NCBI GenBank assembly: GCA_014879535.1
Contig: JACSRX010000037.1
Span: 32,629 to 96,628 of the forward strand
Direction: 5' to 3'
DNA: 64,000 nt
Source of the DNA: Chthoniobacterales bacterium
GTDB lineage: Bacteria; Verrucomicrobiota; Verrucomicrobiia; Chthoniobacterales; JACTMZ01
The notes below the pieces were generated by a model that saw nothing but the letters and a program-made list of their open reading frames with translations, searched no databases and was not told the origin of the DNA. Positions 14,444 through 44,083 of the stretch are shown piece after piece. Every line of letters starts with the position of its first letter. The stretch's first letter is position 1. A program made the position numbers and the translations under genes.

Positions 14444-14528
14444 GCCGGCGTGGCGAAATGGCAGACGCAACGGACTTAAAATCCGTTGGGAGGAAACTCC
14501 CGTGCGGGTTCAAGTCCCGCCGCCGGCA
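14444..14528 (+). tRNA. tRNA-Leu (anticodon TAA), class II with long variable arm
   Basis: Hand fold. Acceptor GCCGGCG/CGCCGGC. Anticodon stem ACGGA/TCCGT with loop CTTAAAA. Variable arm GGGAG-GAAA-CTCCC. T-arm GCGGG-TTCAAGT-CCCGC. Discriminator A. CCA is not encoded. Confidence 0.9.
14461..14528 (+). repeat. attL-side direct repeat (3' 68 nt of tRNA-Leu)
   Basis: Recurs at 44016-44083 with 2 mismatches (positions 14465 and 14474). 14475-14528 is identical to 44030-44083. Confidence 0.85.
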
Positions 14529-14595
14529 CTGTATTTATCAGGGTTTACGGGCGTTTTTGGTGGTCGAGTTAAAGGAAATTTTCGGGGGTATGTTT

Positions 14596-14612
14596 TTCCA
14601 CTTTTTTCCACT
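14596..14612 (+). promoter_or_regulatory. putative integrase arm-type site (TTCCACTTTTTTCCACT), left arm
   Basis: This 17-nt motif holds a tandem TTCCACT. It recurs 16/17 at 43982-43998 in the same orientation. Both copies lie within 70 nt of the att core. Confidence 0.4.
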
Positions 14613-14932
14613 CAAGAAACCGCACCTAGTGACCAAAGCCCAAGGGCTTGCGGCTACAATGAATCTGCAAAAAATCAGGCGAACGGGGGTGCCCATGGTT
14701 AAGGCCGCTCCCTTGCCGTGACGATGGGGCTCACTTGAAGTTTGTTTGTCTGAACTTTGCGGTTCGCCCGAGGATGGCCGTGAGGCTGTGATAGCTTGCC
14801 TCGGTCGTTTTCGGGAGATTGACTCTTTACTGCCGTTCACGGCCGGCCCCCCCGTCTCCATTGTGGGAGCGGGGCCTTCTTCATGCGGGAAATTTGTGGT
14901 TGGGCATGTGGATCGCGGAGGCCGAGGAATTG

Positions 14933-15904
14933 CTATCGGCCTTCCTCGAAGTCGAGGTGGGTGTCAGAGCGTGCAACAGGCAGGTCGAAGACGGACTTGA
15001 GCTGCACCTCTAACTCCAGCACTCCATGAGAGACCAGTTTTCTTGTGGTCTCGGCCAAGGGGTCCAGAGTTGTGACGTGGGTGGTTGTCAGGAGGATGTG
15101 GATGGTTTCTGATTTGGGCGGCATCTCGCCTGTGAGGGGAGTAAACTCGCCATCGAAGACCATTTTCCACGAATCGACCTTGGCGACCCCTTGGGCTTGG
15201 TCGAAGAGACCCTCGAACTGAAGGCGACCGCGCTTGTAGCCTCTTGTTTTTTTCGAGATTGCGCCGAGTTGAAGCTTGGCGCCGTGCGGCTCTTCTGGGG
15301 ATGAGCAGTCGAACTCCACTTGCCAAGCTCGGTCGTATTTCTCGGCCTCATCGAGGCTGTCCCAAGTTTTCCTCAATATAGTGGCTAAAGGTAGCTTTTG
15401 TTTGCTCCGGATGTCATGGAAAGTGTCTTCGTCGGTGATTTGGCATTTTGTCCCATCCTTGAGAACCAGTTGAGCGAGCGTTGGAGTCAAGTCCCAGATT
15501 TCAAAGACTGCATGGGTAAGAAGTCCGCTTGGCCACCTAGGGGTGAGGGTGTCCTCGTATTTGTAGAGGGTGATGCCAAGTGCATCTGCCGTGGCAAATG
15601 CGGCCTTGGAGAAGCCCTTGGTGGAAACCATGATGGCCGCGTGTGCGCCGACATCTGCCTTGACGGAGTTGAAGGCTTCAACGGCTTTGACATCGACCTT
15701 CCGAGTCCATTTCTTGCATTCGACGATGATCAAAATTTTCTCGGTTCCGATGGTTGCCCGGATGGTTGCGTCAATCTGTCGCTTGGTCTTGGAGTTTTTG
15801 CCTTGTATGTGCTCGTTTTTGGTGACTTTGCCCGTAGTGGCGAAGTTCTTCTGGAGGCGAGCAACGAGAGCCTCGAATTGTTGCCAAGAGATGCCGCCCG
15901 CCAT
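14933..15904 (-). CDS. Mrr-like (PD-(D/E)xK) restriction endonuclease domain protein with unknown C-terminal domain
   Basis: 323 aa. The N-terminal third carries the Mrr_cat pattern: QIDATIR ... ILIIVECKKW ... AAIMVSTKGFSKAAFATADALGITLY. I did not recognise the C-terminal ~200 aa. Confidence 0.65.
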   Translation of the reverse strand: MAGGISWQQFEALVARLQKNFATTGKVTKNEHIQGKNSKTKRQIDATIRATIGTEKILIIVECKKWTRKVDVKAVEAFNSVKADVGAHAAIMVSTKGFSKAAFATADALGITLYKYEDTLTPRWPSGLLTHAVFEIWDLTPTLAQLVLKDGTKCQITDEDTFHDIRSKQKLPLATILRKTWDSLDEAEKYDRAWQVEFDCSSPEEPHGAKLQLGAISKKTRGYKRGRLQFEGLFDQAQGVAKVDSWKMVFDGEFTPLTGEMPPKSETIHILLTTTHVTTLDPLAETTRKLVSHGVLELEVQLKSVFDLPVARSDTHLDFEEGR

Positions 15905-15916
15905 ACGACTTCAACC

Positions 15917-16081
15917 TCACTTCCGTTTGGTCTTCAACGTCTTGGTCGTCGGGGCCAAAGGTGTAACTACCTGCTGACGGTCGACTCCGTAGGTGGTGAA
16001 AAGCTCGCCCCAGAATGATTTGGCCTCTGCTTCTTCCCATTTCTCAGCGAAGTGGGCCAACCGGTCGTGGATTTCGTTCAT
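15917..16081 (-). pseudogene. N-terminal remnant of an MmeI/PglX-type (type IIG/L) restriction-modification enzyme
   Basis: Own translation of a 54-codon ORF gives MNEIHDRLAHFAEKWEEAEAKSFWGELFTTYGVDRQQVVTPLAPTTKTLKTKRK*. Compare my recollection of the MmeI N-terminus: WNEIRRKAIEFSKRWEDA..QAKPFLIDFFEVFGI..RV. The ORF is followed by two in-frame stops and then the Mrr-like start. Confidence 0.45.
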
Positions 16082-16326
16082 TAAAAGCGTGGATGGTATA
16101 ACGACGCAGCGTGTTTTACGGGGCCATTGTCGTTTCTCAGGCCTGCATTCCTATCGGTCAAGGGTTAGCGGTCGTATGGCATACTTTTTCATTCCGTTTG
16201 GCGCTTGGGAGCTTTGATGGTGACGATGGCTTTGTATCCGCGTTCGGCGATCGTTAGCCAACTTTTCGGGACTGCCATGGTGAGATTCCCTTTCGGGGCC
16301 AGCAACCAGAGGTTTTGGGAAGGGTT

Positions 16327-19300
16327 CTAGTCGGTTGCCGTGGGGTTCTGGCCATCTTCAAGGAGTCGGTATTCCAGTCGTCCGAGGCGGATAAGATGGT
16401 CCTGCACTTCTCTGGCTTTGTGCACGACATCCGGAAGCCCGCTATTGAGAGCGATGCGCAGGATGGTCTTGGCCTTGTCTTCCTGACCCCACCAAGGTGG
16501 AGTTTTCTTGGGGCCGAACGTCAGCATGTGTAGGCAGGCCAAAGCCTGAACCGGATGCGTCGAGACCTGCTTGGCCAAAAAATCGAAAGGCAACAACTGG
16601 TGTTCAAAATCTGAACCAGAGAGCAGAGTCAAAACTTGCAATAGTCTCCGTAGCGTCCATTCCGGCGGCAGCTTCTCAGAATCTGCCCAACGCACGATGC
16701 CTCGGAGTTCCCGCGTCTCGGGGGAGTGGGGCTGCTCGTCTTTGAGTGCGGCGATACGCCAATCGGCGAGGTCCATGAACCGCTTGGCTACCGGCGCGGG
16801 CAATGGCCCTTCCGTCTTGTGAAGGACCCGTGCGATGTAACGAAAAACGTATTCCCGTAGGCTCGTGGTGGCAGTCTCGAAGAAGGTGGTAAGCAGCGAG
16901 GGAGAGTCAATCGGTTCGTATCCCCACCAATAGTAGGCGCAAAGGTGGTGTATCAAACCCTTCTGTGGGCACCAATCGGAACTTGGCTTATCTACCAACT
17001 CAGATCGGCATGCTTCGATGGCGCGCCCATATTCGGATCGAAGGACTTCCAAGGCAGCTTTGGAAGGTCTGCACATGGTGACGAAACAGTTCCAGATGGC
17101 GTCACGTTTATCCGAGTCGGCCCGAGGGAAGAATGACGCCAGACGACTTTCGAGCCACATGCGGTGGTGTCTGAGGAACCAGTTCATCCGCTCCCCGAAC
17201 ACGCTTCGGCCGCCTAAGGACGGTTCCTTGCGGAGGACTTTTTCCAGAGTTTGCAGCACTTCCGACGAGTCAGTGATCTCCCCTCGACGCAGCCACCGGT
17301 CGTAGGCGAAGACGCACCGCAGGGCAATGGGACGGGGGGTGTTGAGCGAGGTCGAGGATAGCTGTTCTGGGAGGGGTTCTTTCTCTTCTGCCTTGGGAGT
17401 CGGGTCAGGATGCTTCAAGAATGCCTCAATGCACTTGAAGACGAGCGACCGATGATCACGAGGAGGCCGATTATTGTCCAAGGCAACCTCAATGGCGCGG
17501 ATAAGAGTTATGCCGAGGCTTTTTTCACGATCATTGGCGTCCCCCTCTGCATGCGGGATGACCTTTTCCTGCACCGCTTTCTCCGTCGCCTCAAGTAATA
17601 CCATCCAATCAACCGATAAGTCTTCGTTGGCAACTTCCCAGAGGCCTTCGAGAAGAGCGGCATAGCGCGCGGGACTCAATTTATCGTATTCATTAATTTG
17701 CGCCAAAATCTTCGCTGAATGTTGCTTGGAGGCCGCTTTGAGAGCTCCTAAAAGTCCCGCTTCGGAGGGGCCATCATAAGGGTCTTTCTCGCGCCAGTGC
17801 GCCAACTCTCCGACGAGACTTGCAGCTGGCATCTTCACAATTTCTTCAGCCGTTTTGGGGCTGTGTTGCTGGACGATCCACGTTCCCCCGGACGACTGGT
17901 AGTGAAATTCGATGGGCTCCACGCTATTCAGTCCTTCACAGAGATCCGGGTGCGCGGCCTTCCAGTCCACCGGTATGCTGTCCTTGATGATCGCGAGCTT
18001 TTGGCGCCAGCGGTCTGCTTTCCACTGATCTAGTTCTTGAGACGTCGGACTCCGGCCATGGTTGACATCCTTGTAGTAGCTGATCGCCACCGAAAGGTCC
18101 GGCTCTGTAATGATCCAGTCTAGGATAGCGTGTTGGTCTCCTTTGGAAAGATGGCGAAATTGCTCGCGGAGTAGAAGCGACCACTCGTGCCAAGCTTCGG
18201 TGCCATTTCTTACCTCATTGTCAAATAGGCAACTTCGGATCTGCTCTCTTCCTGCCGCCTCTGGATTTGTGCGAAGCAGATGAATGCGGATGCGTTTGAA
18301 AATCATCCAATGAGAGACCGTAAGCACTTCCTCGATTGTCGAGAACTCCACCTGCTGCTGAGAGAGAGTTGCCTCCGCTAGATCGCGGATGGCTGAAATC
18401 AAGATTCCTCTTTGATCCTCGTGGTGATTCTGCTCGCTGTCCTCAACGGAACCTCGCCAGAATACGGATCCATCGTAGCTGCCCCGCTCTTCCATCTCGT
18501 CTGGCCAAGTCCTGTTTCGGATGTTCTCGGAAAGAGCAACGACGAAGAGGCGGAGCAGCGACAGACGGTCTTGGGGCTGGACGAAGTTGAGTAGCTGGGT
18601 GACGAAATCCTGCGTGGAATCTGAGTCTAGCGTGGGTTCCGGCTCGGGCGAAAGCAGGCTCAATGCCATCTGCTCTGTCTCGCGCTGAGTCTCCTTCTCC
18701 TCCAGCCGAGGATCAGGATGGGCTTTGAGCGCAGCACCGATGAGCCGCTCGACCTCTGGGGTGATCCCTCCTTGCACGATTGGTCCAACGAATTCAACCA
18801 AGGCGCGACTGAGAATAAAGGATCCTCGCCTTGCCTCGATCCACGTTGTTGCCAAACCGACGAAGGTTTCGCGGCTTTGATCAGGAAGTTTCAGTGCGAG
18901 GTGCAAGAGCTGATGGCGAACCCAGTCATCATCCAGTTTCGCAAGCAGGAGTGCCGCCTCGGCAACATCATCAGTGGCGTCAGCCACAAGTCTGAGGAGG
19001 AGGTCCACTTCAGGGGTGCCCGCGTTGGAATGATCGACTTGGGGACCATTCGGTGATTCGGGATCGAACCATCCGGCCTCAACAAGTATCGGCAGCCATG
19101 AGGCGTTCCGTATGGCCGCGAAGAAAGCGGAGCGGTCGTGGTGGCCGTCCACCATCGTCCGGATGATGTGGAGAGTCTCCGGTGTGGGATTTCTGCCAGT
19201 CTCTGCCACGACCCTTTCGATTTGTTGAAGTTTCTCCGGCTCACTGGGGCGGAGGTAACGAAGCAGCAGCAGCTCCAATTGGTCTAGCAGTCGCAGCAGC

Positions 19301-19878
19301 TCTTCCTCAGTAGAGGCTTTGTGGTGTGCAATTGGTTTGAGGCTGGAGAGGATCTCATGCCATTCTTGTCGATCCCGCTCGAATGTATTTGGAGGTTTTC
19401 TCCGGCGCTGGAGACGATCAAGAGCCGTGCCAGCTCGCTCGATCCCAAGAGGACGATGTGTATCAAACCATTCAATAAATTGGCCAAAGTTTGCCACGAA
19501 AGGCTCAAGTGAGGGGGCATCTCCAATTGTATGACCCTCTTGGGCCTCCTTTTGGAGATTTAGCCATGGCTTCCTGACAAGTCTCTCCAACTGCTCATGC
19601 ATCTTTAGGTTGCTTTTCGAAGGACCTTTCGACCATGTGAATGCCAGATCCATCACTTCCCGCAGGCAGTGAGCTGCTATTGCGATGTAGTCGTGCGATT
19701 TGTCATGAAGCGCCCCAAGAGCGCCGAGATAGATTTTAGGGAGCCTTTCATCATGGGCTTCAAGAAGGCGGAGAAGGACTAGCTGCCGGGGAGTGAGGAC
19801 ATGTGAACCGAGTCTGACTTCGTGGTTAGCTTCCGGTGTGGGGAAGCTGCTCTCTGCGTCTTCTTCGGGGGCGGTCAT
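16327..19878 (-). CDS. large (1183 aa) predicted all-alpha protein, function unknown
   Basis: Long uninterrupted ORF with an ATG start. Helix-rich, Leu/Arg/Glu-rich sequence with no enzymatic motif I can assign. Sits between the XRE regulator and the nuclease genes on the same strand. Confidence 0.7.
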   Translation of the reverse strand: MTAPEEDAESSFPTPEANHEVRLGSHVLTPRQLVLLRLLEAHDERLPKIYLGALGALHDKSHDYIAIAAHCLREVMDLAFTWSKGPSKSNLKMHEQLERLVRKPWLNLQKEAQEGHTIGDAPSLEPFVANFGQFIEWFDTHRPLGIERAGTALDRLQRRRKPPNTFERDRQEWHEILSSLKPIAHHKASTEEELLRLLDQLELLLLRYLRPSEPEKLQQIERVVAETGRNPTPETLHIIRTMVDGHHDRSAFFAAIRNASWLPILVEAGWFDPESPNGPQVDHSNAGTPEVDLLLRLVADATDDVAEAALLLAKLDDDWVRHQLLHLALKLPDQSRETFVGLATTWIEARRGSFILSRALVEFVGPIVQGGITPEVERLIGAALKAHPDPRLEEKETQRETEQMALSLLSPEPEPTLDSDSTQDFVTQLLNFVQPQDRLSLLRLFVVALSENIRNRTWPDEMEERGSYDGSVFWRGSVEDSEQNHHEDQRGILISAIRDLAEATLSQQQVEFSTIEEVLTVSHWMIFKRIRIHLLRTNPEAAGREQIRSCLFDNEVRNGTEAWHEWSLLLREQFRHLSKGDQHAILDWIITEPDLSVAISYYKDVNHGRSPTSQELDQWKADRWRQKLAIIKDSIPVDWKAAHPDLCEGLNSVEPIEFHYQSSGGTWIVQQHSPKTAEEIVKMPAASLVGELAHWREKDPYDGPSEAGLLGALKAASKQHSAKILAQINEYDKLSPARYAALLEGLWEVANEDLSVDWMVLLEATEKAVQEKVIPHAEGDANDREKSLGITLIRAIEVALDNNRPPRDHRSLVFKCIEAFLKHPDPTPKAEEKEPLPEQLSSTSLNTPRPIALRCVFAYDRWLRRGEITDSSEVLQTLEKVLRKEPSLGGRSVFGERMNWFLRHHRMWLESRLASFFPRADSDKRDAIWNCFVTMCRPSKAALEVLRSEYGRAIEACRSELVDKPSSDWCPQKGLIHHLCAYYWWGYEPIDSPSLLTTFFETATTSLREYVFRYIARVLHKTEGPLPAPVAKRFMDLADWRIAALKDEQPHSPETRELRGIVRWADSEKLPPEWTLRRLLQVLTLLSGSDFEHQLLPFDFLAKQVSTHPVQALACLHMLTFGPKKTPPWWGQEDKAKTILRIALNSGLPDVVHKAREVQDHLIRLGRLEYRLLEDGQNPTATD

Positions 19879-19963: not shown

Positions 19964-20209
19964 CTAACTCTCAAGAATTAGAAGCCTCGCCCGCAGGACT
20001 TTCAACAGAGCAAGCAGCTCCAAATCGGTCAGTGTCCGGCGTTGAGCCTCGATGTGGCCAAGGTTAGTTTCCGACAGCTCCCACCCTTGAACGCCAAGCT
20101 TGGCAGCAACTTGGGCTTGCGTCAGGCCCTTTGCCCGCCGCAGGGCTTTCAACTTCGGGCCGAACGCATTTTTCTTGCCGGTCTCCTTGCCAACAGGTTT
20201 GCGAGGCAT
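19964..20209 (-). CDS. XRE-family helix-turn-helix transcriptional regulator
   Basis: HTH_3 pattern: LKALRRAKGLTQAQVAAKLGVQGWELSETNLGHIEAQRR. ATG at 20209 is preferred over the TTG at 20230 given in the track. Confidence 0.75.
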   Translation of the reverse strand: MPRKPVGKETGKKNAFGPKLKALRRAKGLTQAQVAAKLGVQGWELSETNLGHIEAQRRTLTDLELLALLKVLRARLLILES

Positions 20210-20273
20210 CCTCTTAAGCCTACCTGTCAACTTCCTTCTTGAGCCTATTCATGGATAGGGTAAGAAACGCCGG

Positions 20274-21164
20274 ATGCAAAAGGGCTTGTCGGCGTTGTCT
20301 CTGGCATTGTGGGCCTGTTTATCAGCTTTCCCGGCATTGTCGGCGGGAGCCGAGAAATGGGAGAAGCTTGAAAGCTGCCGCCTGAACGAAACCGCATATT
20401 TTGACGGCGATTCGTTCAGCGTGTTTCACGCAGGCGGCGAACTCATCGTGCGTCTGTATTTTGTGGACTCCCCGGAGACGGACGAAAGCTTTCCCGACCG
20501 TGTAAGGACGCAGGCCGGGCACTTTGGCAAGAGCGTCGAGGAAACTCTCCATGTCGGCAGCTACGCGAAGCAAGCCACAGCACAGCTCCTTTCCCGCCCC
20601 TTCACGGTCTTGACCAAATACCAAGATGCAAAAGGCCAAAGCGCCATGCCTCGACACTTCGCCTTTGTCACTACCGCAGACGGGAAGGACCTCGCTGAGA
20701 TCCTCGTGGCAAACGGGCTGGCGCGTTCGTATGGAGAGATTGCGGCGCCGCAGGGAAAGAACGCGGCCGCGCTGAAAGCCAAATATGATCGTTTGGATGA
20801 CAAGGCGAGGCGGTCAAAGTTTGGGCTTTATTCCCCACAGCCACTAACGGCGATTTCCCACGGGAAAGATCTTCAACTCGACAAACTGACCTTGGCGGAA
20901 GCGCAGGCGAAGGCGGCACCAATCCCGGCGCCTCAGGTTGCCAAGGCGCCTATGTCTGCGTCCGTCGGAATATCGCCGTCCACAGTTCCGGCTTCCGCGC
21001 CGAACCACGGCATGCCGTGGACAGCGGAGCAGGAGCAGACCTTGAGGGATTGCCTCGGCAAAGGCGTAACGGTTGAAGACATAGCCGCCGAGCTTGGTCG
21101 GACGCCCGTGGCCATCCTCGCCCGAATCCGCAAGTTGGGACTGCCGGAGCCGGGCCTTCCATGA
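20274..21164 (+). CDS. secreted staphylococcal-nuclease (SNase)-like protein with C-terminal GcrA-like HTH domain
   Basis: Signal peptide MQKGLSALSLALWACLSAFPALSAGA. SNase pattern DGDSFSV...VRLYFVDSPET. The C-terminus MPWTAEQEQTLRDCLGKGVTVEDIAAELGRTPVAILARIRKLGL aligns with my recollection of the GcrA N-terminal domain (MSWTDERV..LKKLW..GLSASQIA..LGGVTRNAVIGKVHRLGL). Confidence 0.65.
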   Translation: MQKGLSALSLALWACLSAFPALSAGAEKWEKLESCRLNETAYFDGDSFSVFHAGGELIVRLYFVDSPETDESFPDRVRTQAGHFGKSVEETLHVGSYAKQATAQLLSRPFTVLTKYQDAKGQSAMPRHFAFVTTADGKDLAEILVANGLARSYGEIAAPQGKNAAALKAKYDRLDDKARRSKFGLYSPQPLTAISHGKDLQLDKLTLAEAQAKAAPIPAPQVAKAPMSASVGISPSTVPASAPNHGMPWTAEQEQTLRDCLGKGVTVEDIAAELGRTPVAILARIRKLGLPEPGLP

Positions 21165-25990: not shown

Positions 25991-25998
25991 ACGCCTTG

Positions 25999-34526: not shown

Positions 34527-34859
34527 TCACGTCACGAAGGTTTTCACCCCTCGCATCGGGTTCAAAACGCTCCCGTCCGGCTGCGGGGCTGGGTTGCAGA
34601 GACGAAGCTCAACAACATCTCGGTCGTCGATGAACAGCGTTGAGAGAGACCTCTTCAAATCCAAATGGCCATCAATCAGCGAGCCTCTCGAGGAGTTGAC
34701 GAAAAAGAAATATTTCAGGGCGCCAAAACCTTCAGGCGAGATATTCGAGTCGTCGAAATTATCCTGAGCAAGCGAGATCAACTCGCCGAGTGTTAAGTCA
34801 AACTCCTCAAGATATACCTCGAGTCCTGATGGAAGAAGTAATGTGGCTTTTTTTTCCAT
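34527..34859 (-). CDS. small protein (110 aa) with ubiquitin-like beta-grasp sequence pattern
   Basis: Start at ATG 34859 (MEKKATLLLPSGLEVYLEEFDLTLGELISLAQ...). It threads onto ubiquitin by eye: PSG.EV.LE, ISPEGF vs IPPDQQ, LIDGHLDL vs [15 protein letters not shown] vs LHLVLRL. It has a 23-aa tail instead of RGG. Confidence 0.45.
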   Translation of the reverse strand: MEKKATLLLPSGLEVYLEEFDLTLGELISLAQDNFDDSNISPEGFGALKYFFFVNSSRGSLIDGHLDLKRSLSTLFIDDRDVVELRLCNPAPQPDGSVLNPMRGVKTFVT

Positions 34860-36252: not shown

Positions 36253-36662
36253 AATTCTTTTCGCTCCCTGTGAACCCGCGTCGCCCGGATGCGCGCGCGT
36301 TCGCTGTCCTCGCGCCGGCCGCCGAAAAAGAACATTTCTAAGTCGCCTAAAAATCGCCCTTTTCGCATATCCCGCAGGCGCTTGGAAATTGCCGCGCGAG
36401 AAAGGCCGTGCTTGCGGCCAATCGCGGCTTGGGACTTCTCGTCCGAGCGGTTCACAAGCGCCAGTAGGCAGTCAGCTGAGAGCTTCAAGCCCGGATGCCG
36501 CGCGTTGCACAGGACCTGAAGAACACGCAGGACCGCGTCTGCAGCTGCAATTTCCGCGGCTTCCCCAGCCTGCGGCGGGTCGTCGAAAAAGCAAAAGTCT
36601 TGGTTCCCGTTTTTCGGGTCGTTCGAGGCCTGAGCGGCCGCGTCGTAAGTCTGTCTGTCCAT
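36195..36662 (-). CDS. HTH DNA-binding protein (sigma-70 region-4/LuxR-like HTH)
   Basis: Start at ATG 36662 (MDRQTYDAAAQ...). HTH segment SQAAIGRKHGLSRAAISKRLRDMRK. Confidence 0.45.
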   Translation of the reverse strand: MDRQTYDAAAQASNDPKNGNQDFCFFDDPPQAGEAAEIAAADAVLRVLQVLCNARHPGLKLSADCLLALVNRSDEKSQAAIGRKHGLSRAAISKRLRDMRKGRFLGDLEMFFFGGRREDSERARIRATRVHRERKELCKTSTHQQRAAATLLSQL

Positions 36663-36770
36663 TGAGGCCCCGGCCAAGGTTTCCCCCAGCCGGAGCAGTT
36701 GCGTGGGCAACCCAATCAACCCCGCGGGTTGGCGCTCACCCAAGAGCCAAGATCTTGTATATTTTTTGCT

Positions 36771-37352
36771 TCATAGCTCTCGACTTGTGGCTTTTTGGCC
36801 TAGTATTTTTCTGGCCATACGATCCTTGAGCCTTTGGATTTTGTCCTCTTCGGCTATGACCTCACTGGGCTTGAAGCAGAGGGGGATTTCGACCGTGGTG
36901 TTGCAGAGGTTAATCTTGTAGCCGCCTGCCTCGGGAGCTGTGACGGTGAGGTTTTCGATCCGTTCAATGCCGCTTTCTGCGAAGCTGACGAATCCCGGGT
37001 AGGTGCCTGTGGCAACTTTGAGGTTTTCGCACCCTCGGAAGCTGGCAGCTTCTCCATCGCAGTCGGTTTTAGTGACGGTGAGATTTTCGATCCGTTCGAT
37101 GCCGCTTTCTACGAAGCAGACCCACCCATGGAAGGTGCCGGTGGCAACTTTGAGGTTTTTGCACCCCCAAAAGCCGGCAGCGCTGTCATACTCATTTCTT
37201 CCTGTGAAGTGGAGTAGTGGGTTGAGGTGGGTGATTTTTGAGCCCGCCATGCCGCAGTAGGTAGTAATCTCCACGGGCTCTGTGAGCTTGGAAGCCCAAG
37301 AAGGGTCTTCCTCAATTAGAGCTTTGAACTCTTCTGCGGTAAGCTTTTTCAT
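36771..37352 (-). CDS. BspA-type LRR-like repeat protein
   Basis: 193 aa holding two 44-aa repeats: F(W/R)GC(K/E)NLKVATGT..G.V.F.ESGIERIENLTVT. The FxGCxxL motif is typical of BspA-like LRRs. Confidence 0.5.
   Translation of the reverse strand: MKKLTAEEFKALIEEDPSWASKLTEPVEITTYCGMAGSKITHLNPLLHFTGRNEYDSAAGFWGCKNLKVATGTFHGWVCFVESGIERIENLTVTKTDCDGEAASFRGCENLKVATGTYPGFVSFAESGIERIENLTVTAPEAGGYKINLCNTTVEIPLCFKPSEVIAEEDKIQRLKDRMARKILGQKATSREL
36940..37203. repeat. 2 x 132-bp tandem duplication inside the LRR-like gene
   Basis: GTGACGGTGAG(G/A)TTTTCGATCCGTTC(A/G)ATGCCGCTTTCT(G/A)CGAAGC... starts at both 36940 and 37072. The period of 132 bp equals 44 codons. Confidence 0.75.
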
Positions 37353-37702
37353 AGCTGCATCCCATCTAGCCCCGACTTTTTCTTGAGGAGCTCCGCGCGT
37401 TTTGCCGCGTTCTCAGCTAGGTCTGCGTAGGCCTGCTGTTTAAGCCTATAATCCCACCAGCCGTCGGGGTCGGAGGTTTCTAGCGACTTCTCGCAAACAG
37501 CGTGGGCCGCGGGGGCCTCGAGCTGCGGGGGCAGTGCGCGGGGACGCATCGCCTTGCCCGCAAACAAATCCGAATCATCCTCGTTGAGCTTCTTTGCAAG
37601 CCTCCGAATCATGCGGTTTTGCGCGGCTAGCAGGTCTAGCGTCGCTGCGAGGGAGGTTTCCAAAACGCCAACGCGTTTTCGTAGTTTTCGTATCTCTTCC
37701 AT
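37349..37702 (-). CDS. coiled-coil hypothetical protein
   Basis: 117 aa with a heptad-like N-terminus (MEEIRKLRKRVGVLETSLAATLDLLAAQNRMIRRLAKKL). The stop overlaps the start of the LRR-like gene. Confidence 0.5.
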   Translation of the reverse strand: MEEIRKLRKRVGVLETSLAATLDLLAAQNRMIRRLAKKLNEDDSDLFAGKAMRPRALPPQLEAPAAHAVCEKSLETSDPDGWWDYRLKQQAYADLAENAAKRAELLKKKSGLDGMQL

Positions 37703-37759: not shown

Positions 37760-38989
37760 TTATAGTTGCGGCATGCGGATTTTTTCTAAAGGGCTCTTCT
37801 CTATGGCCGTCAGCTGTTGAGCGAGGCGGCGAATGTCCTGCAGGCTTCGCAAGGGCTGTTCGACAATTTGTGTCGCTCGAATTGAGATCATAATTCCCGC
37901 GCGAAGCTCCCGCGGGATCAAGCGCCAAGCGGTCAGCTTCATCGCCCGGTAAGCTAGAGGCCAAAGCCCCGTGCGGTGGTGGTAGGAGAGACCAGCCTTA
38001 ATGAGCCTTCGCTGCGGCTCTTGCTCTTCCTCTTTTCGCTTCCAGCCAGCATACCTTTTCTTGGCCTGCTCGTATTTTGCGCAAAGACCTTCTTGGCGGA
38101 AAAAGGTTTCGAGCTCGCGATCCATTACCCGCTGAATTTCGAGGTCAATGACGGGGCGGTCTCCTTTTTTCTCCAAGTTTCGCCTAGCGTTCGCAACCTT
38201 CCCCTCGGACAATAGGCCCGGGAAGTGCTGCTCGATTCGAAGCGTGTTGGCCGTCCAATCATCAGTGGTTATAAAGCTAGCCTTGGGGTATGGGGTGCCG
38301 TCCCCACTCACTTTGGGGATGTGGAGGTGAAGATGCGGGAAAAATGAATCGTTAGAGTTTGCATCGTAATGCACCCCGCCGCCCCAAGTTTCCCTGCCGC
38401 TGATTTCTTGGATCCTGGCCGCCGCCTTCTCGGCGAGGCAAAGCATGAGGTGGTCTCGCTGGCTCGCCGGCATTTCCTTTAGCAACCCCCAAGACCATGG
38501 CGGCGCTGTTGCCAAAAGACTTTGCGCACCACACCTATATCTGACGGTGTCTCTACGCTCCTTGCCTTCGCGAATGCGAATACGCACCCCGCGACGGCGC
38601 GTTCTCTCCATCGCCTTGGTTGCCGAGGTGTATTCATCACCAGCCGCGCGGCAGGCTTCTCTGCGTCTCATTTTGAAACAGAAGCCCACCGCGGGCACCG
38701 GCGTGATGCCTTCGACAATCCGCCCCCGCGCCGCCGAAAGCGTCGGCACCGGTTCCCAAGTGGTCTGGCCGCGCTCGCGCTTCTCCTTCTTGTCCTTTGC
38801 GTGCTGCTTTGAAGCAGGATCGTCATGGTCTACCGCGTGCTGCGTTAAATTCCTCATACCCCCAGAGGGCGGGTCAACCATGCAGAGGGAGGCGAGATGG
38901 GTTTTCTGGGCTGCGCCCACGAAAACAGGAAAAAAAGCCGGGCAGAGCCCAGCTTGTAATGGGACACATGGGATACTTGTATCCGGCAC
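37760..38989 (-). CDS. HUH-motif protein, putative Mob/Pre-type relaxase or Rep initiator (start uncertain)
   Basis: The motif GGVHYDANSNDSFFPHLHLHIP resembles the HxDE...PHxH / HUH metal-binding motif of Mob_Pre relaxases. The track start at 38989 is GTG. ATG alternatives are at 38881 and 38857. An oriT-like region adjoins the gene. Confidence 0.4.
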   Translation of the reverse strand: MPDTSIPCVPLQAGLCPAFFPVFVGAAQKTHLASLCMVDPPSGGMRNLTQHAVDHDDPASKQHAKDKKEKRERGQTTWEPVPTLSAARGRIVEGITPVPAVGFCFKMRRREACRAAGDEYTSATKAMERTRRRGVRIRIREGKERRDTVRYRCGAQSLLATAPPWSWGLLKEMPASQRDHLMLCLAEKAAARIQEISGRETWGGGVHYDANSNDSFFPHLHLHIPKVSGDGTPYPKASFITTDDWTANTLRIEQHFPGLLSEGKVANARRNLEKKGDRPVIDLEIQRVMDRELETFFRQEGLCAKYEQAKKRYAGWKRKEEEQEPQRRLIKAGLSYHHRTGLWPLAYRAMKLTAWRLIPRELRAGIMISIRATQIVEQPLRSLQDIRRLAQQLTAIEKSPLEKIRMPQL

Positions 38990-39304: not shown

Positions 39305-39355
39305 ATGCCCTCGTTAGGGGGTGGGGGTTGGGTCGAGAAACCAAAAACTCGACCA

Positions 39356-39613
39356 ATGAACAATACAAAATGCGGCCCCGGGAAAGCCGTAATTTCCCAA
39401 GAGACGGGGAGGGTAGTCGCCCTCGCCACCGACATTGCTGTGGCAATGGGAATTAACCCTGCCGTGCTCACGCTAGGCGTGCAGCGGGGTAACATTCGAC
39501 GCGAAGGCCGCTTCCTCGATGTAGATGACGCGGGGCGATATATCGCTTCCCGCGGCCCGGTCGGGCGGCCGCCGAAACAAAAACAGCAACCAGCGGAGGA
39601 GATACAGCCATGA
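39356..39613 (+). CDS. excisionase/AlpA-like small HTH protein
   Basis: Start at ATG 39356. Sequence ALATDIAVAMGINPAVLTLGVQRGNIRREGRFLDVDDAGRYI resembles excisionase-family HTH proteins. The stop overlaps the primase start (ATGA). Confidence 0.5.
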   Translation: MNNTKCGPGKAVISQETGRVVALATDIAVAMGINPAVLTLGVQRGNIRREGRFLDVDDAGRYIASRGPVGRPPKQKQQPAEEIQP

Positions 39614-41214
39614 GCACCCCCGCAAAATTCGCCCGCTTCCTCGGATCCCCCCGAGAGCGCGCCTATGTGCTCGCGGAAGCGAAGGGGCAGAAAACCGACA
39701 AGGCCCCTGAGCCTACAGACAACATCATTCAGGCAACGGAGGAGTTGAGGGCGGCCGTGGGTGAGGCGCGACAAATGCGCGAGCTCGGCGACCGCACGGG
39801 CTGGCTACGCAACGCGCACGGCCAGCCGACTGCACCATCTGAAAAATACTGGATAGACCGACTCGCTCAGACGGGGGACTACATATATGACCCCTTGGTG
39901 GACGCGTTTTTCGTCTTCTCGGGTGGTCTGTGGTCTCGCAGGACGCGGGCAGAAACCCGCGAGACAATCGACGCATTCATTCGCGTCGAAGTTGGTGAGG
40001 ACGACACCCTCAACCTCGACAAACTCCTAGGAAAAAAACACCTCGACGTCCTAACCGAGAGGCTTACCGGCCACCGCTGCGTGGTGCGCAGGGATGCTTT
40101 CTCGAGTCCTCCTCATGGGGTGGTCTTGTGCGAAAATGGGCGTTTGCAAATCTCCTCAGAGGGCGAGATTGCCTTCGCCGAGGGCAACCCCGGCGAACGG
40201 GGGGACATGCAGCAAGTCCGCTTGCCGCTTGTTTACGACCCGTCGGCGCGGGCAGAACGGTTCGAGGGTTGGCTCTCTCGCATTTTTTGCGGGCGCGAAG
40301 ATGACACCCAAGCCGTCGCCAAGATGTATGGTGCCGCCCTGTGGGGGAGTTGCAGGTGGAAAAAGATGGTGGTGGTCCATGGGCCCTCCAACCTCGGCAA
40401 ATCCCAAATCCCGCTGATAACTGAGAGGCTGATCGGCCGCCAGCGTGTGGCAGAATTTGAAACGCGACGCCTCGGTGAGAAATTTGAAATGCGCCGATTC
40501 GTGTCGAAGGTATTCCTTCGCGCCGAGGATGTTGATGCGGACTTTATGACGCGTGGATATGCGGATGTGCTAAAGCAACTCACCGGGTTTGGCAGCCTGC
40601 GCGTCGAGGGGAAAAACTCACACGAGGAATTCGAGCTCCGCGGTGATAAGATAATCTGCGCCACCTCAAATTTCCGGCTGCGCGTCCGAACGGACGTGGA
40701 CCGGTCAGCGTGGGAAGAGCGCCTCGTCTACCTCGAATGCGACGGCGAACCCTACAGACGAGAGGAGCAAGACACCTACTACGTTGATTCGCTGTTTTCC
40801 AACAGGGAAGAGGCTGCGGGCATTCTCAACTTTGCGTTGAATGGTCTGCGTGAATTGCTGCTCCACGGTTGGGCGAGGTCGGAACTCCAAATGGGCCGCG
40901 TCCGGCGCGTGATGGAGCAAGGCGAGAGCGTGGCGGAATTTGTCCGCGGGTGCATGACTCCGTCGGGGCCGGAGGAAGATCCCGCGAGGCCGGGGACAAC
41001 GATTTCCGAGGCGTGGGCTTGCTACCTCGAATGGGCAGACACCCACAGGGCGGAGAAATGGCCGGAACGCATTTGGCGTGAAATGATCGTCGAAGCGGTC
41101 GAGCAAGTCCGCGGAAAGACCACGTGCAACAACCTGCCACGCGGAGGCACCGCACAGAGGGGTTGGCGGGGAATCACGCTTCGGCGAAGGGAAACCAAAA
41201 AGGAGGAAGCATGA
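39610..41214 (+). CDS. phage/plasmid primase-helicase, P4/D5 family (SF3 NTPase)
   Basis: 534 aa. D5_N-like region followed by Walker A (VVVHGPSNLGKSQ) and the C-terminal P4-family domain pattern. Confidence 0.8.
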   Translation: MSTPAKFARFLGSPRERAYVLAEAKGQKTDKAPEPTDNIIQATEELRAAVGEARQMRELGDRTGWLRNAHGQPTAPSEKYWIDRLAQTGDYIYDPLVDAFFVFSGGLWSRRTRAETRETIDAFIRVEVGEDDTLNLDKLLGKKHLDVLTERLTGHRCVVRRDAFSSPPHGVVLCENGRLQISSEGEIAFAEGNPGERGDMQQVRLPLVYDPSARAERFEGWLSRIFCGREDDTQAVAKMYGAALWGSCRWKKMVVVHGPSNLGKSQIPLITERLIGRQRVAEFETRRLGEKFEMRRFVSKVFLRAEDVDADFMTRGYADVLKQLTGFGSLRVEGKNSHEEFELRGDKIICATSNFRLRVRTDVDRSAWEERLVYLECDGEPYRREEQDTYYVDSLFSNREEAAGILNFALNGLRELLLHGWARSELQMGRVRRVMEQGESVAEFVRGCMTPSGPEEDPARPGTTISEAWACYLEWADTHRAEKWPERIWREMIVEAVEQVRGKTTCNNLPRGGTAQRGWRGITLRRRETKKEEA

Positions 41215-41567
41215 GCACCCCACAAAAACCTGTCCACGCGGTCTGGAGAGCCGACAAGAAGAACCCGGGACAATGGCTCGTCTTCGGTCCGGCTTGGCTT
41301 TTGAAAGCGCTGGGAGTCGTTCCGATCCAGAAGGCGGATGGTAGCGTCGAACATCGCCGGCTCATTTGGACGTCCATCCCATTTGACGTGGATGGGGTGC
41401 CGCATTGTTACGGGCGCCCTGCTCCCAAACGGTTTTGCGATCACTGTGGGCAGTTCCACAGCCGCGAGGAAGTCCGCGCGGTATTTGGGGGAGCCCCCGG
41501 CACCGGGGCATATTGGAGGCATGGGGAGGAAACCTGCTCCTGTGGCGGGAAGCTCGGAAAAGCGTAG
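41211..41567 (+). CDS. small Cys/His-rich hypothetical protein
   Basis: RBS-like AGGAGGA lies upstream of ATG 41211, which overlaps the primase stop. CDHCGQFH ... CSCGG suggests a zinc ribbon. Confidence 0.5.
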   Translation: MSTPQKPVHAVWRADKKNPGQWLVFGPAWLLKALGVVPIQKADGSVEHRRLIWTSIPFDVDGVPHCYGRPAPKRFCDHCGQFHSREEVRAVFGGAPGTGAYWRHGEETCSCGGKLGKA

Positions 41568-41700
41568 GGAGCAAATGCAAAATTATGGACAGGGCGGTCC
41601 AAGTTGCCTTGTAGAGAGAGTCAAGCCTCCTGCTTATCCGCGGCACTTGCTTTGCCTCCGCAAGGAGGCAGTCCATGCCCCGTGGCCCCGTGGGTAAGGG

Positions 41701-42144
41701 TTAATGAAGCCCAAGATCGCATGGGCGAGTCGACAGTGTGCTGCTTCGAACGATCCCGTTCATGCTGTTGATGTTGGTGAAAGTCTGCCAACCGTGCCCC
41801 GTGAATACCGCCGCACGTCCGGGATCAGGAACAAAGAGAATTAGTTCTTCACCGTCTGTTCTGGGGGTGATGTCGAGAAGTTGACCACCTTGGGAGATCA
41901 CTGAGTGAAATTCAGCTTCGATAAACCGTAGCCGACGCAACTCCCAAATCATCCACCCATAGACCACCGTTCCAAGCCCAGCATTCGCTGCATGTGCGCA
42001 GTTATCGAGGCAATAAGCAGGGCGATAGCGCTTATCAATGCATGTGAATGGAAGGTGAACCGGCTCCTCCTCATTGAGCCCAGCATCACGCAGGAACGCC
42101 CGCACCCTTCCATCAACTTTTATCGGTGTAGTCTGGTGCGCCAT
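41701..42144 (-). CDS. hypothetical protein
   Basis: Start at ATG 42144 (MAHQTTPIKVDGRV...). Lies 11 nt downstream of the preceding minus-strand ORF. No motif recognised. Confidence 0.4.
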   Translation of the reverse strand: MAHQTTPIKVDGRVRAFLRDAGLNEEEPVHLPFTCIDKRYRPAYCLDNCAHAANAGLGTVVYGWMIWELRRLRFIEAEFHSVISQGGQLLDITPRTDGEELILFVPDPGRAAVFTGHGWQTFTNINSMNGIVRSSTLSTRPCDLGLH

Positions 42145-42155
42145 GGGGCTGGTGC

Positions 42156-42494
42156 CTACGAAGCGGAACATCGAAGCTCGAAATCGTATTCTCGGCTGGG
42201 TGTGAGGCTCTGAATCTGCGCAGGAATGAGGTAACGAGACCAATACTGGATTTGAGACGTCGGGATCTTAGAAGGGCCAGTCGGGGCCACTGGCATAGGC
42301 CATGATTGCCACACAACTACGGCGATTTTGCCGACATGAGGACCATCCGGGTCGGCATCTCTGACACGGATGTGGCACGGTCTCCCATGTGGGCTCTCAT
42401 CGTCCACTAGGAGAAGGGTTTTATCGTGAAGGTCACGAATTGCAGTCGTGGGCTCAACCCATACTTCGGCCGTGGAGAGTTGCTGGAGATTCAT
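42156..42494 (-). CDS. hypothetical protein
   Basis: Start at ATG 42494 (MNLQQLSTAEVWVEPTTAIRDLHDKTLLLVDDE...). No motif recognised. Confidence 0.4.
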   Translation of the reverse strand: MNLQQLSTAEVWVEPTTAIRDLHDKTLLLVDDESPHGRPCHIRVRDADPDGPHVGKIAVVVWQSWPMPVAPTGPSKIPTSQIQYWSRYLIPAQIQSLTPSREYDFELRCSAS

Positions 42495-42762
42495 GGGTTC
42501 TATCGTGGGGTAGCGGCATGCGCTGACAACACAAAAGTCGGCTAAACCTGAGGTTTTGGCAGGTGCTCCGACGAGTTGTTGTGTTGCCCATTCTCGCACC
42601 CGGCGCGATCGGGCATGGCGGGGCTCCTTCCGTCCTCGTTCGCCTCGGACGGCTCGGCGTAGGAAAGAGCTGGCAGGCAAGCTGCCGCCATGCCCTCAAA
42701 GCGACCGAGACGACGAAGACAATTTCTCCGGGTCTTCGACCGCTTCGGCATTGTCTCCGCGC

Positions 42763-43938
42763 TCAGTCGCGAGAGTCGGGTGCAAGCGCCCAAAAGGCTG
42801 CGGCGTCGCGATCGCTGACCGCATCCGCGTAGCTCGCGGCGACCACGGCGGGGGAATTACCCATCTCGAACGCGGTGCGGGCCGTGTCTTTCAATTTTTG
42901 GTGCAAGTAGGTGCCGTAGGAGTGACGCAAGGCGTTCTGTGGTATCTTCGCTCCAGCCAAGTTTTCCAACTTGGCGAGCTCTTCGAGCCATGCCCATACG
43001 CGAGCCTTGAACGCGGGTCGCGCGGCGAAGATCGGGCCGGTTTTCGGCCGCTTGCTTGGCAACCAACGGAGCAAGGCCGGCTCGACGGAAACCGACCTCG
43101 GGCGGCCGGTCTTGGTGCGTTGCACGCGGAGGGTGTCGGCCTTGAGGTCTTCCCACTTCGCCAGGGCCATTTCATCGTTTCTGAGGCCAGCGAAAAGTTT
43201 AAGGGCGAGGGCGGGGAGAAGATCGGGGCGCTGTTTCTTGGCTGCGAGCAGCAGCGCACGGCACTGGGGAACGGTGAGGATTTCGGGGCGGCCGCGGACA
43301 ACGCGTGGGCGCGTGATTGCCTCGGCGGGGTTGCGGGTGAGCCAGCCTTGCTTTTTGGAAAACTCGGCCAAGACGGAAAAATACCGCAACCGCTTGACAC
43401 GTTGCGATTGGCTTGGCGCCTTGCCCTTCGCGTCTTTGCCGTCCACGGTGATCCGCAGTTCTTCGGCGGTGAGGGCGGACAAGCTTTTCTTTTCATGCCC
43501 GCGTAGCAGGCGGGCGAGCTTGGCTTTGAGCTCGAGACAATGGCGGCGCGAGAGGCCGGCGTCGAGGCGATCCGCGTAGAGTGCGGCGATTGCTTCGGCA
43601 ACCGTTTTGGATTCGCCTGCCGCGTGTTGGCTCTCCCAAAAAAATGCCGCCTCAACCAACGAAGCGCGGCCGCTGAGTTTCGCCAAGGCGGCCTTGGCGT
43701 CGGCAATTTGGAGGGGGGAGAGTTCGGCGGCGACGGCCTCCGCTTGTAAAGGGTGCAGCTCTGCCCACCGTTCATCAATCCAAGCGCGGGCGGCGTCGAG
43801 TGAAGCGAAGCCGCGCCGTTCCGGGGCCATGCCGGGGCCGAGGAACTTGGCGGAGAGCCAGACGCGATAGACAGTGCGGGATGGCGTCGGGTGCTCGATG
43901 AAGATACGCGAGCCGAGGGGGAGCTTGCGCTTTGCCAT
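42763..43938 (-). CDS. int: tyrosine recombinase / phage-type integrase
   Basis: 391 aa. The C-terminal catalytic region shows GLRNDEMALAKWEDL (Arg), ALRHSYGTYLH (His-x-x-Arg-region context) and AASYAD (Tyr). Lies next to the right att repeat. Confidence 0.85.
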   Translation of the reverse strand: MAKRKLPLGSRIFIEHPTPSRTVYRVWLSAKFLGPGMAPERRGFASLDAARAWIDERWAELHPLQAEAVAAELSPLQIADAKAALAKLSGRASLVEAAFFWESQHAAGESKTVAEAIAALYADRLDAGLSRRHCLELKAKLARLLRGHEKKSLSALTAEELRITVDGKDAKGKAPSQSQRVKRLRYFSVLAEFSKKQGWLTRNPAEAITRPRVVRGRPEILTVPQCRALLLAAKKQRPDLLPALALKLFAGLRNDEMALAKWEDLKADTLRVQRTKTGRPRSVSVEPALLRWLPSKRPKTGPIFAARPAFKARVWAWLEELAKLENLAGAKIPQNALRHSYGTYLHQKLKDTARTAFEMGNSPAVVAASYADAVSDRDAAAFWALAPDSRD

Positions 43939-43981
43939 GGGCGGAAGAAAACTTCCCCCAAATGGAAAAGAAAAGGTTTTT

Positions 43982-43998
43982 CTCCACTTTTTTCCACT
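43982..43998 (+). promoter_or_regulatory. putative integrase arm-type site, right arm
   Basis: CTCCACTTTTTTCCACT is 16/17 identical to 14596-14612. It lies between the int start (43938) and the att repeat (44016). Confidence 0.4.
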
Positions 43999-44015
43999 TT
44001 CTTTTCTTTACCTAC

Positions 44016-44083
44016 GCAGGCGCAACGGCCTTAAAATCCGTTGGGAGGAAACTCCCGTGCGGGTTCAAGTCCCGCCGCCGGCA
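44016..44083 (+). repeat. attR-side direct repeat (partial tRNA-Leu 3' copy)
   Basis: 68 nt matching 14461-14528 with 2 mismatches. It lacks the acceptor 5' strand and D-arm. One mismatch would disrupt the anticodon stem. Confidence 0.85.

Follow-up and report, generated by a model that had tools for sequence, protein, structure and literature searches.

Is the DNA that lies between a tRNA-Leu(UAA) gene and a second copy of the 3' part of that gene one mobile element and, if so, how was it inserted and to which kind of element does it belong? This question is raised by a stretch of 64,000 nucleotides (nt) from the genome of an uncultured soil/water bacterium of the Chthoniobacterales (Verrucomicrobiota), called the window below, to whose full length all position numbers refer. 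The segment 14530-44015, analysed here as the island, is rather probably a single site-specific integrative, and probably mobilizable, element of this genome. It is a real and precisely bounded integrative island, and as a phenomenon it is an ordinary one, of note chiefly for its candidate defence genes, its toxin genes and a rare relaxase-like protein that is not annotated. The ends of the island and the adjoining chromosome are formed by the following features.

14444..14529, plus strand: intact tRNA-Leu(UAA) gene, the 3' 68 nt of which (14461-14528) are the left attachment site, attL (ARAGORN, Rfam, repeat D2).
44016..44083, plus strand: right attachment site, attR, formed by the displaced last 68 nt of tRNA-Leu and not itself a gene (repeat; no tRNA call).
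44114..45024, plus strand: right chromosomal flank with an SNase gene (238 amino acids, aa) and tRNA-Thr(CGU), collinear with the related loci L089 and L090.

Two tRNA genes were called in the window by ARAGORN, tRNA-Leu(taa) at 14444-14529 (+) and tRNA-Thr(cgt) at 44952-45024 (+), in agreement with Rfam (tRNA-Leu as RF00005, 62.7 bits), and neither program called a tRNA at 44016-44083. The repeat search gave a single 68-nt direct repeat (14461-14528 / 44016-44083, 97% identity), the only long one across the region. Reading of both copies confirmed the description given in a first-pass annotation of this DNA: the final 54 nt, from the anticodon loop to the discriminator base, are identical, and the only two mismatches fall in the first 14 nt, at repeat positions 5 (A/G) and 14 (A/C), both on the 5' side of the anticodon loop CTTAAAA. 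The change at position 14 disrupts the last anticodon-stem pair of the right copy. This copy begins within the D-loop and is therefore without the acceptor 5' strand and the D-stem 5' strand, and its earlier interpretation as an att remnant rather than a gene holds. The 3' 22-mer of the repeat occurs twice in the window at up to 3 mismatches, compared with 0.01 occurrences expected from shuffled sequences, and a chance origin of the tRNA 3' repeat is excluded. A larger segmental duplication, which the annotation had considered as another source of the repeat, was not found by sensitive short-word blastn, which showed neither a third att copy nor any wider duplication, but only the 68 nt and a 16-nt arm motif described below.

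The comparison with related genomes showed that the segment between the two copies is dispensable at this site. An empty site, the tRNA-Leu/SNase junction proposed earlier as a check, was located through homologues of the flank SNase (2542 family matches). In the metagenome contig L090 (SNase 71% identical), gltD, tRNA-Leu(taa), 183 nt, SNase, tRNA-Thr(cgt) and DUF1697 follow one another, and the site is unoccupied; since a related genome has the same site empty, the island of the window is real. The second and closer relative, L089 (SNase 86% identical), carries a tRNA-Leu identical to that of the window and is collinear with window positions 7243-14530 (94.9% identity) and 44075-54840 (91.9% identity), with nothing corresponding to 14531-44074. 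The segment is thus missing from both relatives with the break exactly at the repeat, and in place of a 29.6-kb stretch kept without variation in close relatives, the collinearity of L089 was found to end at 14530/44075. The DNA has been inserted at the tRNA gene, and its ends are the repeat, in support of the earlier view of a site-specific integrative island in tRNA-Leu.

In L089 the interval between the same two points is occupied by a different insert of 2.5 kb (7227-9832), with genes for an AraC-type regulator and a short-chain dehydrogenase, in which no integrase was found. Its ends are the tRNA-Leu 3' part (7227-7300) and a decayed copy of that part with 91% identity (9759-9832). The insert represents an independent and older occupancy of the same hot spot, and as L089 holds its own insert bounded by a decayed tRNA-Leu copy, the site is a hot spot that has been used repeatedly. 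It appears in three states, namely empty (L090), with a 2.5-kb remnant (L089) and with a 29.5-kb island (window). Relatives obtained from a GltD-based GTDB scan (L005-L007, 88% identity) were also considered as empty-site evidence and rejected; their synteny stops at gltD, the tRNA-Leu lying 1.5-3.5 kb beyond it, and therefore they offer no usable empty site. An exact look-up of the window GltD in the assembly index gave 0 matches.

Two further differences were observed in the right flank. About 150 nt of the tRNA-Leu/SNase spacer (L089 9819-9962, present also in L090) are gone from the window (44084-44113), directly beside attR, and the join of this small deletion coincides with a microhomology, CCGGCA, to the 3' end of the tRNA. 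The stretch 45885-50500 (4.6 kb, a polysaccharide deacetylase/glycosyltransferase region) is present in L089 and not in L090, and thus the neighbourhood of the hot spot contains another variable region.

By its composition the island is foreign DNA. Its GC content is 0.572 as a whole, compared with 0.652 in the left flank and 0.634 in the right flank, and is distributed as follows.

14.5-20.3 kb: GC 0.547.
20.3-26.0 kb: GC 0.575.
Rhs gene: GC 0.603.
Patch 32.2-35.1 kb: GC 0.511.
Core 35.1-43.9 kb: GC 0.587.

Of the two AT-rich patches pointed out earlier by eye, that at 32.2-35.1 kb is clearly distinct (0.511), whereas that at 14.5-20.3 kb (0.547) is only marginally below the core (0.587).

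The mode of insertion is indicated by the integrase gene and by short repeats found at both ends of the island.

42763..43938, minus strand: tyrosine integrase, 391 aa, full length (PHROG_1 integrase, 3.3e-20).
14593..14611, plus strand: tandem TTTTTCCAC x2, 64-82 nt inside attL; putative arm-type integrase sites, P' arm (motif count).
43979..43997, plus strand: tandem TTTCTCCAC / TTTTTCCAC, 19-37 nt inside attR; putative arm-type sites, P arm (motif count).

The start codon of the integrase gene, an ATG on the minus strand at 43938, stands 78 nt from the right repeat, as had been noted. The match of its product with Pfam PF00589 (25.8 bits) lies under the cut-off of 27.1; the residues R253, K276, R338, H339 and Y370 are invariant across the family (alignment A4), and by its sequence the enzyme is intact but divergent. 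In this family an asparagine is invariant at places where histidine is usual, N335 (QNALRH) and N361 (MGNSP), with the Arg, Lys, Arg and Tyr kept.

The nonamer TTTYTCCAC occurs at five sites in 64 kb, compared with 1.0 expected, and four of the five form two tandem pairs at the island ends (14593/14603 and 43979/43989); the stretches 14597-14612 and 43983-43998 are exactly the same over 16 nt (blastn). A tandem of GTGGAnAAA is also located between tRNA-derived sequence and the integrase gene (int) in L002, L095 and L096, the integrases of which are 75%, 46% and 37% identical, respectively. The tandem TTTYTCCAC repeats are likely to be arm-type integrase sites. Their presence at both ends implies that the leftmost DNA shares its attP with int, and therefore that the island is one recombination unit, in which the int gene and both putative arm regions are intact.

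The crossover most probably took place in the anticodon loop, because the mismatches between the copies lie immediately 5' of it, because in L002 the host tRNA-Leu 5' half, identical to that of the window, is cut exactly after CTTAAAA, where the element DNA begins, and because the loop and the first arm repeat are 32 nt apart in L002 and in the window alike. In L095 and L096, antisense 3' fragments of tRNA-Tyr(GUA), ending at about the anticodon stem, are found together with GTGGAnAAA repeats upstream of int, and this is the layout of the window with another tRNA.

In the standard model, in which attL is B-O-P' and attR is P-O-B', the tyrosine integrase would have recombined tRNA-Leu(UAA) with an attP bearing a tRNA copy that extended from the D-loop to the discriminator base. 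The element-borne 3' part would have rebuilt tRNA-Leu at attL, the original 3' part of the host gene would have been displaced to attR beside int, and the 5' 14 nt of the int-side copy would be an imperfect mimicry by the element. Excision via the 54-nt identical stretches would yield a circle of 29,555 bp and a tRNA-Leu restored directly upstream of the SNase gene; the predicted attP would hold CTTTACCTACGCAGGCGCAACGGCCTTAAAATCCGTTGGGAGGAAACTCCCGTGCGGGTTCAAGTCCCGCCGCCGGCACTGTATTTATCAGGG, and the predicted attB GCAGACGCAACGGACTTAAAATCCGTT followed by CCGCCGGCAGCCGGCAATTGCACG. It is strongly indicated that the element was integrated by a tyrosine recombinase through an exchange at the anticodon loop, the tRNA being regenerated, and that its excision would take the form of the 29,555-bp circle.

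The kind of element is less readily deduced, and depends on the genes lying just inside the integrase.

39305..39613, plus strand: putative winged helix-turn-helix (wHTH) protein, 102 aa, heading the helicase operon; candidate excisionase or regulator.
39610..41214, plus strand: P4-family D5N/superfamily 3 (SF3) helicase, 534 aa, Walker A GPSNLGKS (PHROG DNA primase families, 7e-23).
37760..38857, minus strand: HUH/three-His protein, 365 aa from the ATG at 38857, transcribed divergently from the helicase.
38888..38952, minus strand: 13-nt inverted repeat I3 (38906-18 / 38940-52) followed by AAAACCCATCTCGCCTC; candidate origin of transfer (oriT) or operator.

The first-pass annotation had named a P4/D5 primase-helicase, of which the D5N/SF3 helicase part is present, but no primase domain (AEP or Toprim) was found with Pfam, PHROG and NCBIfam. 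The protein matches only the C-terminal halves of PHROG primase families, reaches 53 bits (2e-14) with TIGR01613 primase_Cterm, the cut-off of which is 108.7, and also matches DUF5906; its first ~85-140 residues are without a family match in Pfam and PHROG. It is 50% identical to the helicase of L085. The 102-aa protein is 35-39% identical to an L001 gene at the same position and itself gave no Pfam or other family match. The L003 gene at this position is matched to it because of that position and because it resembles the L001 gene (42% identity, 48 aa), with no direct similarity match, and the HTH_17 match of the L003 gene has an E-value of only 0.014. In all fetched relatives a gene of ~330 aa (L001 7775-8767, L085 8021-8995, L087 5641-6669, L003 13196-14353), which may be the missing primase, separates the small HTH gene from that of the helicase. 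In the window the 102-aa gene and the helicase gene overlap by 4 nt (39613/39610) where the relatives carry this gene.

The HUH protein belongs to a rare family, with 13 relatives in an index of 5.8 billion proteins and 69 clusters among 1.84 billion representatives. Its HxDx(n)HxH metal-binding motif is present with H163, D165, H175 and H177 invariant, and the invariant motifs of the family are S153-G-R155, H163-x-D165 and P174-H175-x-H177-x-H179 (alignment A1); H11-D-D and H19 are likewise invariant, H19 being conserved throughout the family, and Y76 is conserved among close members only. In the AlphaFold2 model (pLDDT 78, pTM 0.73) HxD and HxH are situated on neighbouring strands. The four best matches of this model in a Foldseek search of the PDB were relaxases, TrwC, pCU1 TraI and F TraI, all of them weak (E 0.18-0.8, TM ~0.2). 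Three distant family members match Pfam Relaxase PF03432 at the His motif with 19.7-24.3 bits, the cut-off being 24.6; two Pfam scans of 20 distant members gave no Relaxase match and a third scan found the three. The HUH motif reported earlier is therefore real, as the invariant three-His motif shows, but the relaxase identity is reached only below the thresholds of Pfam and Foldseek, and the protein is linked only weakly to the MobA/VirD2 relaxases.

The inverted repeat is located 35-95 nt ahead of the HUH gene and is conserved, with the motif that follows it, in front of the L003 homologue; the regions upstream of HUH genes were otherwise mostly unalignable, and only this window/L003 inverted repeat stood out. 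With moderate confidence, the HUH protein may be regarded as a nuclease of the relaxase type, with an oriT close to its gene as substrate. No HUH relatives were found in IMG/VR or in phage and plasmid collections (tblastn on plasmids and phages), and a Foldseek search of BFVD returned noise. When metagenomes were scanned with the HUH alignment, only two loci were obtained, L091 and L092, beside a tRNA-Val, and they contribute little. The MOBV relaxase MobM uses a histidine as nucleophile. To apply this to the HUH protein would be speculation, and it is no more than a speculative thought that the HUH nuclease represents a new relaxase (MOB) family without the usual N-terminal tyrosine, perhaps using a conserved histidine.

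Pfam and PHROG scans of all sizeable open reading frames (ORFs), in which several island ORFs were left without any family assignment, gave no capsid, portal, terminase, tail, type IV secretion system (T4SS) or coupling-protein family. Neither were a VirB4-type ATPase, a coupling protein or a mating-pore protein, the features of an integrative and conjugative element (ICE), detected in the ORFs of the window, nor any match in the PHROG structural category or any packaging-hijack gene of a satellite. These results agree with the earlier opinion that the island is neither a prophage nor an ICE. As transfer and virion genes are absent and an HUH relaxase-like nuclease and an SF3 helicase are present, the island is most likely an integrative mobilizable element (IME). 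Transfer as an IME riding a helper conjugation system may be proposed with moderate confidence: the relaxase-like protein would nick oriT, the circle would ride the helper conjugation system, and the helicase would serve to replicate or maintain the circle.

Several observations weigh against this interpretation. The HUH protein itself (P0044) gave no Pfam, NCBIfam or PHROG match and did not pass the curated PF03432 model; profiles of its family searched against PDB sequences returned noise only and did not reach the solved relaxases, the best Foldseek match has E 0.18 with TM ~0.2, and no conserved tyrosine was found in the first 60 residues of the family. The organism has no known helper conjugative system. 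The excisionase-like HTH suggested earlier was not demonstrated by Pfam searches of the 102-aa protein and of its L003 counterpart. The ~330-aa gene that all relatives keep beside the helicase is lacking in the window, and ~150 nt beside attR are deleted. A search for the circular attP junction and the restored attB, recommended in the first-pass annotation, came back empty: the reconstructed attB pattern had 0 matches in JGI metagenomes and the attP-type pattern 0 in IMG/VR, and for this exact genome neither the circular junction nor a restored attB came to light. The integrase and HUH proteins of the island are on record on one contig only, with no sign of recent spread.

The absence of the ~330-aa gene and the deletion at attR imply that the element could be partly decayed. 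They are consistent with a once-mobile island which is now immobile cargo, its att sites and int kept and its transfer/replication module decayed, as are the occurrence of the element on one contig only and the case of L089, which shows that the site accumulates integrase-less remnants. This explanation is nevertheless unlikely, as the 54-nt cores are identical, the arm repeats are intact at both ends, and the integrase, helicase and HUH ORFs are full length in comparison with their homologues and have kept all the family-invariant residues.

A helper-phage-dependent satellite (P4/PICI-like, where PICI is a phage-inducible chromosomal island) or a degraded prophage, in which Int, the small HTH protein and the P4-family helicase would make up a satellite replication module and the HUH protein would be a rolling-circle Rep instead of a relaxase, has to be weighed as well. 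A layout of int, small HTH gene and helicase is typical of P4-like islands. The window has this layout, its helicase matches the C-terminal region of P4-family primases, and the HUH fold alone cannot separate a Rep from a relaxase. Moreover, distant relatives of the integrase occur in phage-like contexts, in L094 (1-11383) with RusA, ParB-like and SNF2 genes and in L003 (1-8000) with a GIY-YIG nuclease and a methyltransferase nearby; since they stand beside phage-like gene sets, the integrase lineage seems to serve several kinds of element. The satellite or prophage origin is, however, quite improbable in view of the lack of any capsid, terminase, portal, tail or packaging-redirection family in the ORFs, the lack of HUH relatives in IMG/VR and GenBank phages and of a structural match in BFVD, and the family-level links of the HUH protein, which lead only to the MobA/VirD2 and TrwC/TraI relaxases.

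A tandem composite (for example a 5.7-kb defence islet at 14.5-20.3 kb plus a 24-kb element), or a chimera produced through the repeat in the assembly of a metagenome-assembled genome, would fit the uneven GC of the segments (0.547, 0.575, 0.603, 0.511, 0.587) and the homologue of the att-flanking SNase 5.7 kb inside attL in the same orientation, but can hardly be maintained, as short-word blastn gave no internal att or tRNA fragment and there is no second recombinase, which makes tandem accretion unlikely, as the leftmost 100 nt share the arm repeats with the int-proximal end, as the internal SNase has its best full-length relative in an ordinary gene of the chromosome, and as a chimera is unlikely with both flanks collinear with L089 and L090 and a repeat of only 68 nt.

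The core of the island may be compared with that of sister elements, which involves further genes near the HUH gene and the integrase.

35632..37702, minus strand: four core-linked genes downstream of the HUH gene, encoding 206, 182, 193 and 117 aa.
41211-41567 (+), 41701-42243 (-), 42156-42680 (-): small ORFs between helicase and integrase (ORF list).

In L085 and L086 the core of helicase, HUH, 182-aa and 206-aa proteins (44-54% identical) is accompanied by a large serine recombinase (L085 1-581) instead of the tyrosine integrase, and the joining of the same core to a serine recombinase shows that modules have been swapped within the element family. The 182-aa protein (weak MarR-type wHTH) is 54% and the 206-aa protein 44% identical to its L085 counterpart, and the order of the two genes is the same in L085. 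The arrangement of a small HTH gene, the ~330-aa gene and the helicase gene, divergent from the HUH gene and its downstream genes, recurs in L085/L086 and in L087; the HUH gene and the ~330-aa gene are present also in L001 and L003. It is possible, though doubtful, that the HUH protein, the SF3 helicase and two conserved downstream genes define an undescribed mobilization/replication module; the suggestion is made because the family is rare (69 clusters), absent from plasmid, phage and viral collections and paired with either tyrosine or serine integrases. The small ORFs at 41211..42680 gave as their only match phrog_37148 (function unknown, 2.4e-5). The 193-aa ORF (36771-37352) contains a 110-nt tandem repeat (36940-37181, 85% identical, 132-nt period, repeat D1), which is in frame and encodes a doubled 44-aa motif GC.NLKVATGT..G.V.F.ESGIERIENLTVT.

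The integrase of L002, 75% identical to that of the window, belongs to a sister element lying in the opposite orientation relative to the tRNA. In L002 the host tRNA-Leu(UAA), cut after the anticodon loop (1384-1423), is not rebuilt at the int-proximal junction, and a complete and different tRNA-Leu(UAA) of the element itself is located just 3' of int (2715-2800; also L001 1323-1408). One may speculate that a single integrase lineage has two ways to spare the tRNA, the window element rebuilding it and the L001/L002 elements splitting it and bringing a replacement.

The remainder of the island, about two thirds of the element, is cargo.

14933..15904, minus strand: Mrr-like restriction endonuclease domain protein, 323 aa (Pfam Mrr_cat, 3.7e-14).
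16327..19878, minus strand: 1183-aa protein, Dsr1-like in its C-terminal two thirds; candidate defence gene (PADLOC Dsr1, 2.1e-21).
19964..20230, minus strand: small XRE/CapH-like HTH regulator, 88 aa (PADLOC HTH_VI and capH, ~2e-4).
20274..21164, plus strand: secreted SNase-family nuclease with a GcrA-like/HTH tail (Pfam SNase, 2.1e-6).
21184..24342, plus strand: large secreted protein, ~1050 aa (ORF from 21094; probable signal-peptide start at 21184).
24321..25990, plus strand: two ORFs of 323 aa and 260 aa, the second with bacterial TSP3 repeats (Pfam TSP3_bac, 2e-5).
25996..32208, plus strand: Rhs-family toxin, 2070 aa (Pfam RHS_repeat, 4.4e-36; DUF6531; transglutaminase-like N-terminal region).
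32174..35054: AT-rich patch, GC 0.51; the small ORFs 32174-32389 and 32496-32825 after Rhs are candidate immunity genes.
33365-34393 and 34527-35054, minus strand: ORFs of 342 aa and 175 aa in the AT-rich patch.

In the 1183-aa protein the Dsr1 match covers residues 473-1019 and reaches 17.7 bits with NCBIfam Dsr1, the cut-off of which is 1400; no SIR2 domain and no Pfam match were found, the Dsr1 C-terminal region alone being matched, and the N-terminal ~470 aa are without a family match. The genes at 14933-20230 (Mrr-like, Dsr1-like and XRE/CapH-like HTH) may constitute a defence system with a different effector domain.

The internal SNase and the chromosomal SNase beyond attR (44114-44830) are paralogues in the same orientation, with 52-56% identity. 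The internal gene might have been captured from a former flank when the element was excised imprecisely in an earlier host, but this idea was dropped, because the SNase family is very large, because its relative P0135 (L093) is chromosomal and because no att remnant lies beside the copy. P0135, the best full-length relative, is placed among housekeeping genes on a contig with no island genes.

The large secreted protein had no match in Pfam, PADLOC, NCBIfam or PHROG, and the 323-aa and 260-aa ORFs are weakly similar to L085 cargo (tblastn). The Rhs toxin shows a DPTGL motif followed by a C-terminal tip of ~190 aa with a GC content of 0.51. No family match was obtained for the ORFs of the AT-rich patch with Pfam, PADLOC and PHROG; the 342-aa ORF is 32% identical over 106 aa to an L001 gene.

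The mobile elements of Verrucomicrobiota are almost unexplored, and this locus illustrates the way in which an Rhs toxin and candidate defence genes of the Mrr-like and Dsr1-like types are carried about within the phylum. The rare relaxase-like family escapes current MOB typing and annotation pipelines, and therefore islands of this type would be scored as 'non-mobilizable'. As a standard tRNA-integrated island the element changes no concept, and its value lies in a hot spot found in three states, in att sites that can be tested and in a rare relaxase-like family overlooked by annotation. Owing to the exact ends and the predicted attP, excision and transfer are directly testable.

Among the known systems, the tRNA-dependent lysogeny of actinobacteriophages (PMC10865867) resembles the L001/L002 arrangement, in which the host tRNA is not rebuilt and a complete tRNA of the same isotype is brought in; this arrangement lies outside actinobacteriophages. 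The window element differs from it in rebuilding the tRNA from its own 3' copy. With P4-like satellites and PICI the island shares a target of the tRNA-Leu type, an int gene beside att, a small HTH gene and a D5N/SF3 helicase, but it has no primase domain, no genes for capsid-size redirection, packaging or heads and no relatives in viral collections, and it has an extra HUH nuclease. The HUH protein has in common with the MobA/VirD2 (PF03432, MOBQ/MOBP) and MOBV relaxases the HxD...(P)HxH three-His site on adjacent strands, a length of ~350 aa, a helical C-terminal part and the position of its gene beside an inverted repeat; unlike them, it stays under every curated threshold, and no tyrosine is conserved in its first 60 residues, where the invariant H11-D-D and H19 are found instead.

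An IME possesses its own integrase, usually with a recombination directionality factor, and its own relaxase and oriT, with no T4SS and usually no coupling protein, and is transferred by a helper conjugative element; NBU1 of Bacteroides, with a tRNA-Leu target, a tyrosine integrase and a relaxase and no T4SS, is an example (PMC5704250). In function the island of the window comes closest to such canonical IMEs. It resembles NBU1 and NBU2 in the tyrosine integrase acting in a tRNA gene, the putative relaxase-type nuclease, the absence of mating-pore and coupling-protein genes and the possession of cargo (PMC5704250), and NBU1 with its tRNA-Leu in particular in the site-specific insertion that leaves the target gene intact. 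As in IMEs of the NBU1/NBU2 type, integration modules are swapped among relatives (Tyr in the window, Ser in L085). It differs in that NBU1 recombines at the very 3' end of tRNA-Leu (PMC10865867), whereas the evidence from the window points to the anticodon loop, and in that the NBU relaxases are recognisable MobP proteins (PMC5704250), whereas the HUH protein passes no curated model; the island is also three times larger, belongs to a different phylum, has no known helper, and its mobilization is a prediction. The island belongs to the class of tDNA islands as defined by Islander (PMC4383910). These likewise encode a tyrosine integrase, and their ends are marked exactly, on one side by the regenerated tRNA gene and on the other by its displaced fragment; every defining feature of these islands is present in that of the window, from which they show no essential difference.

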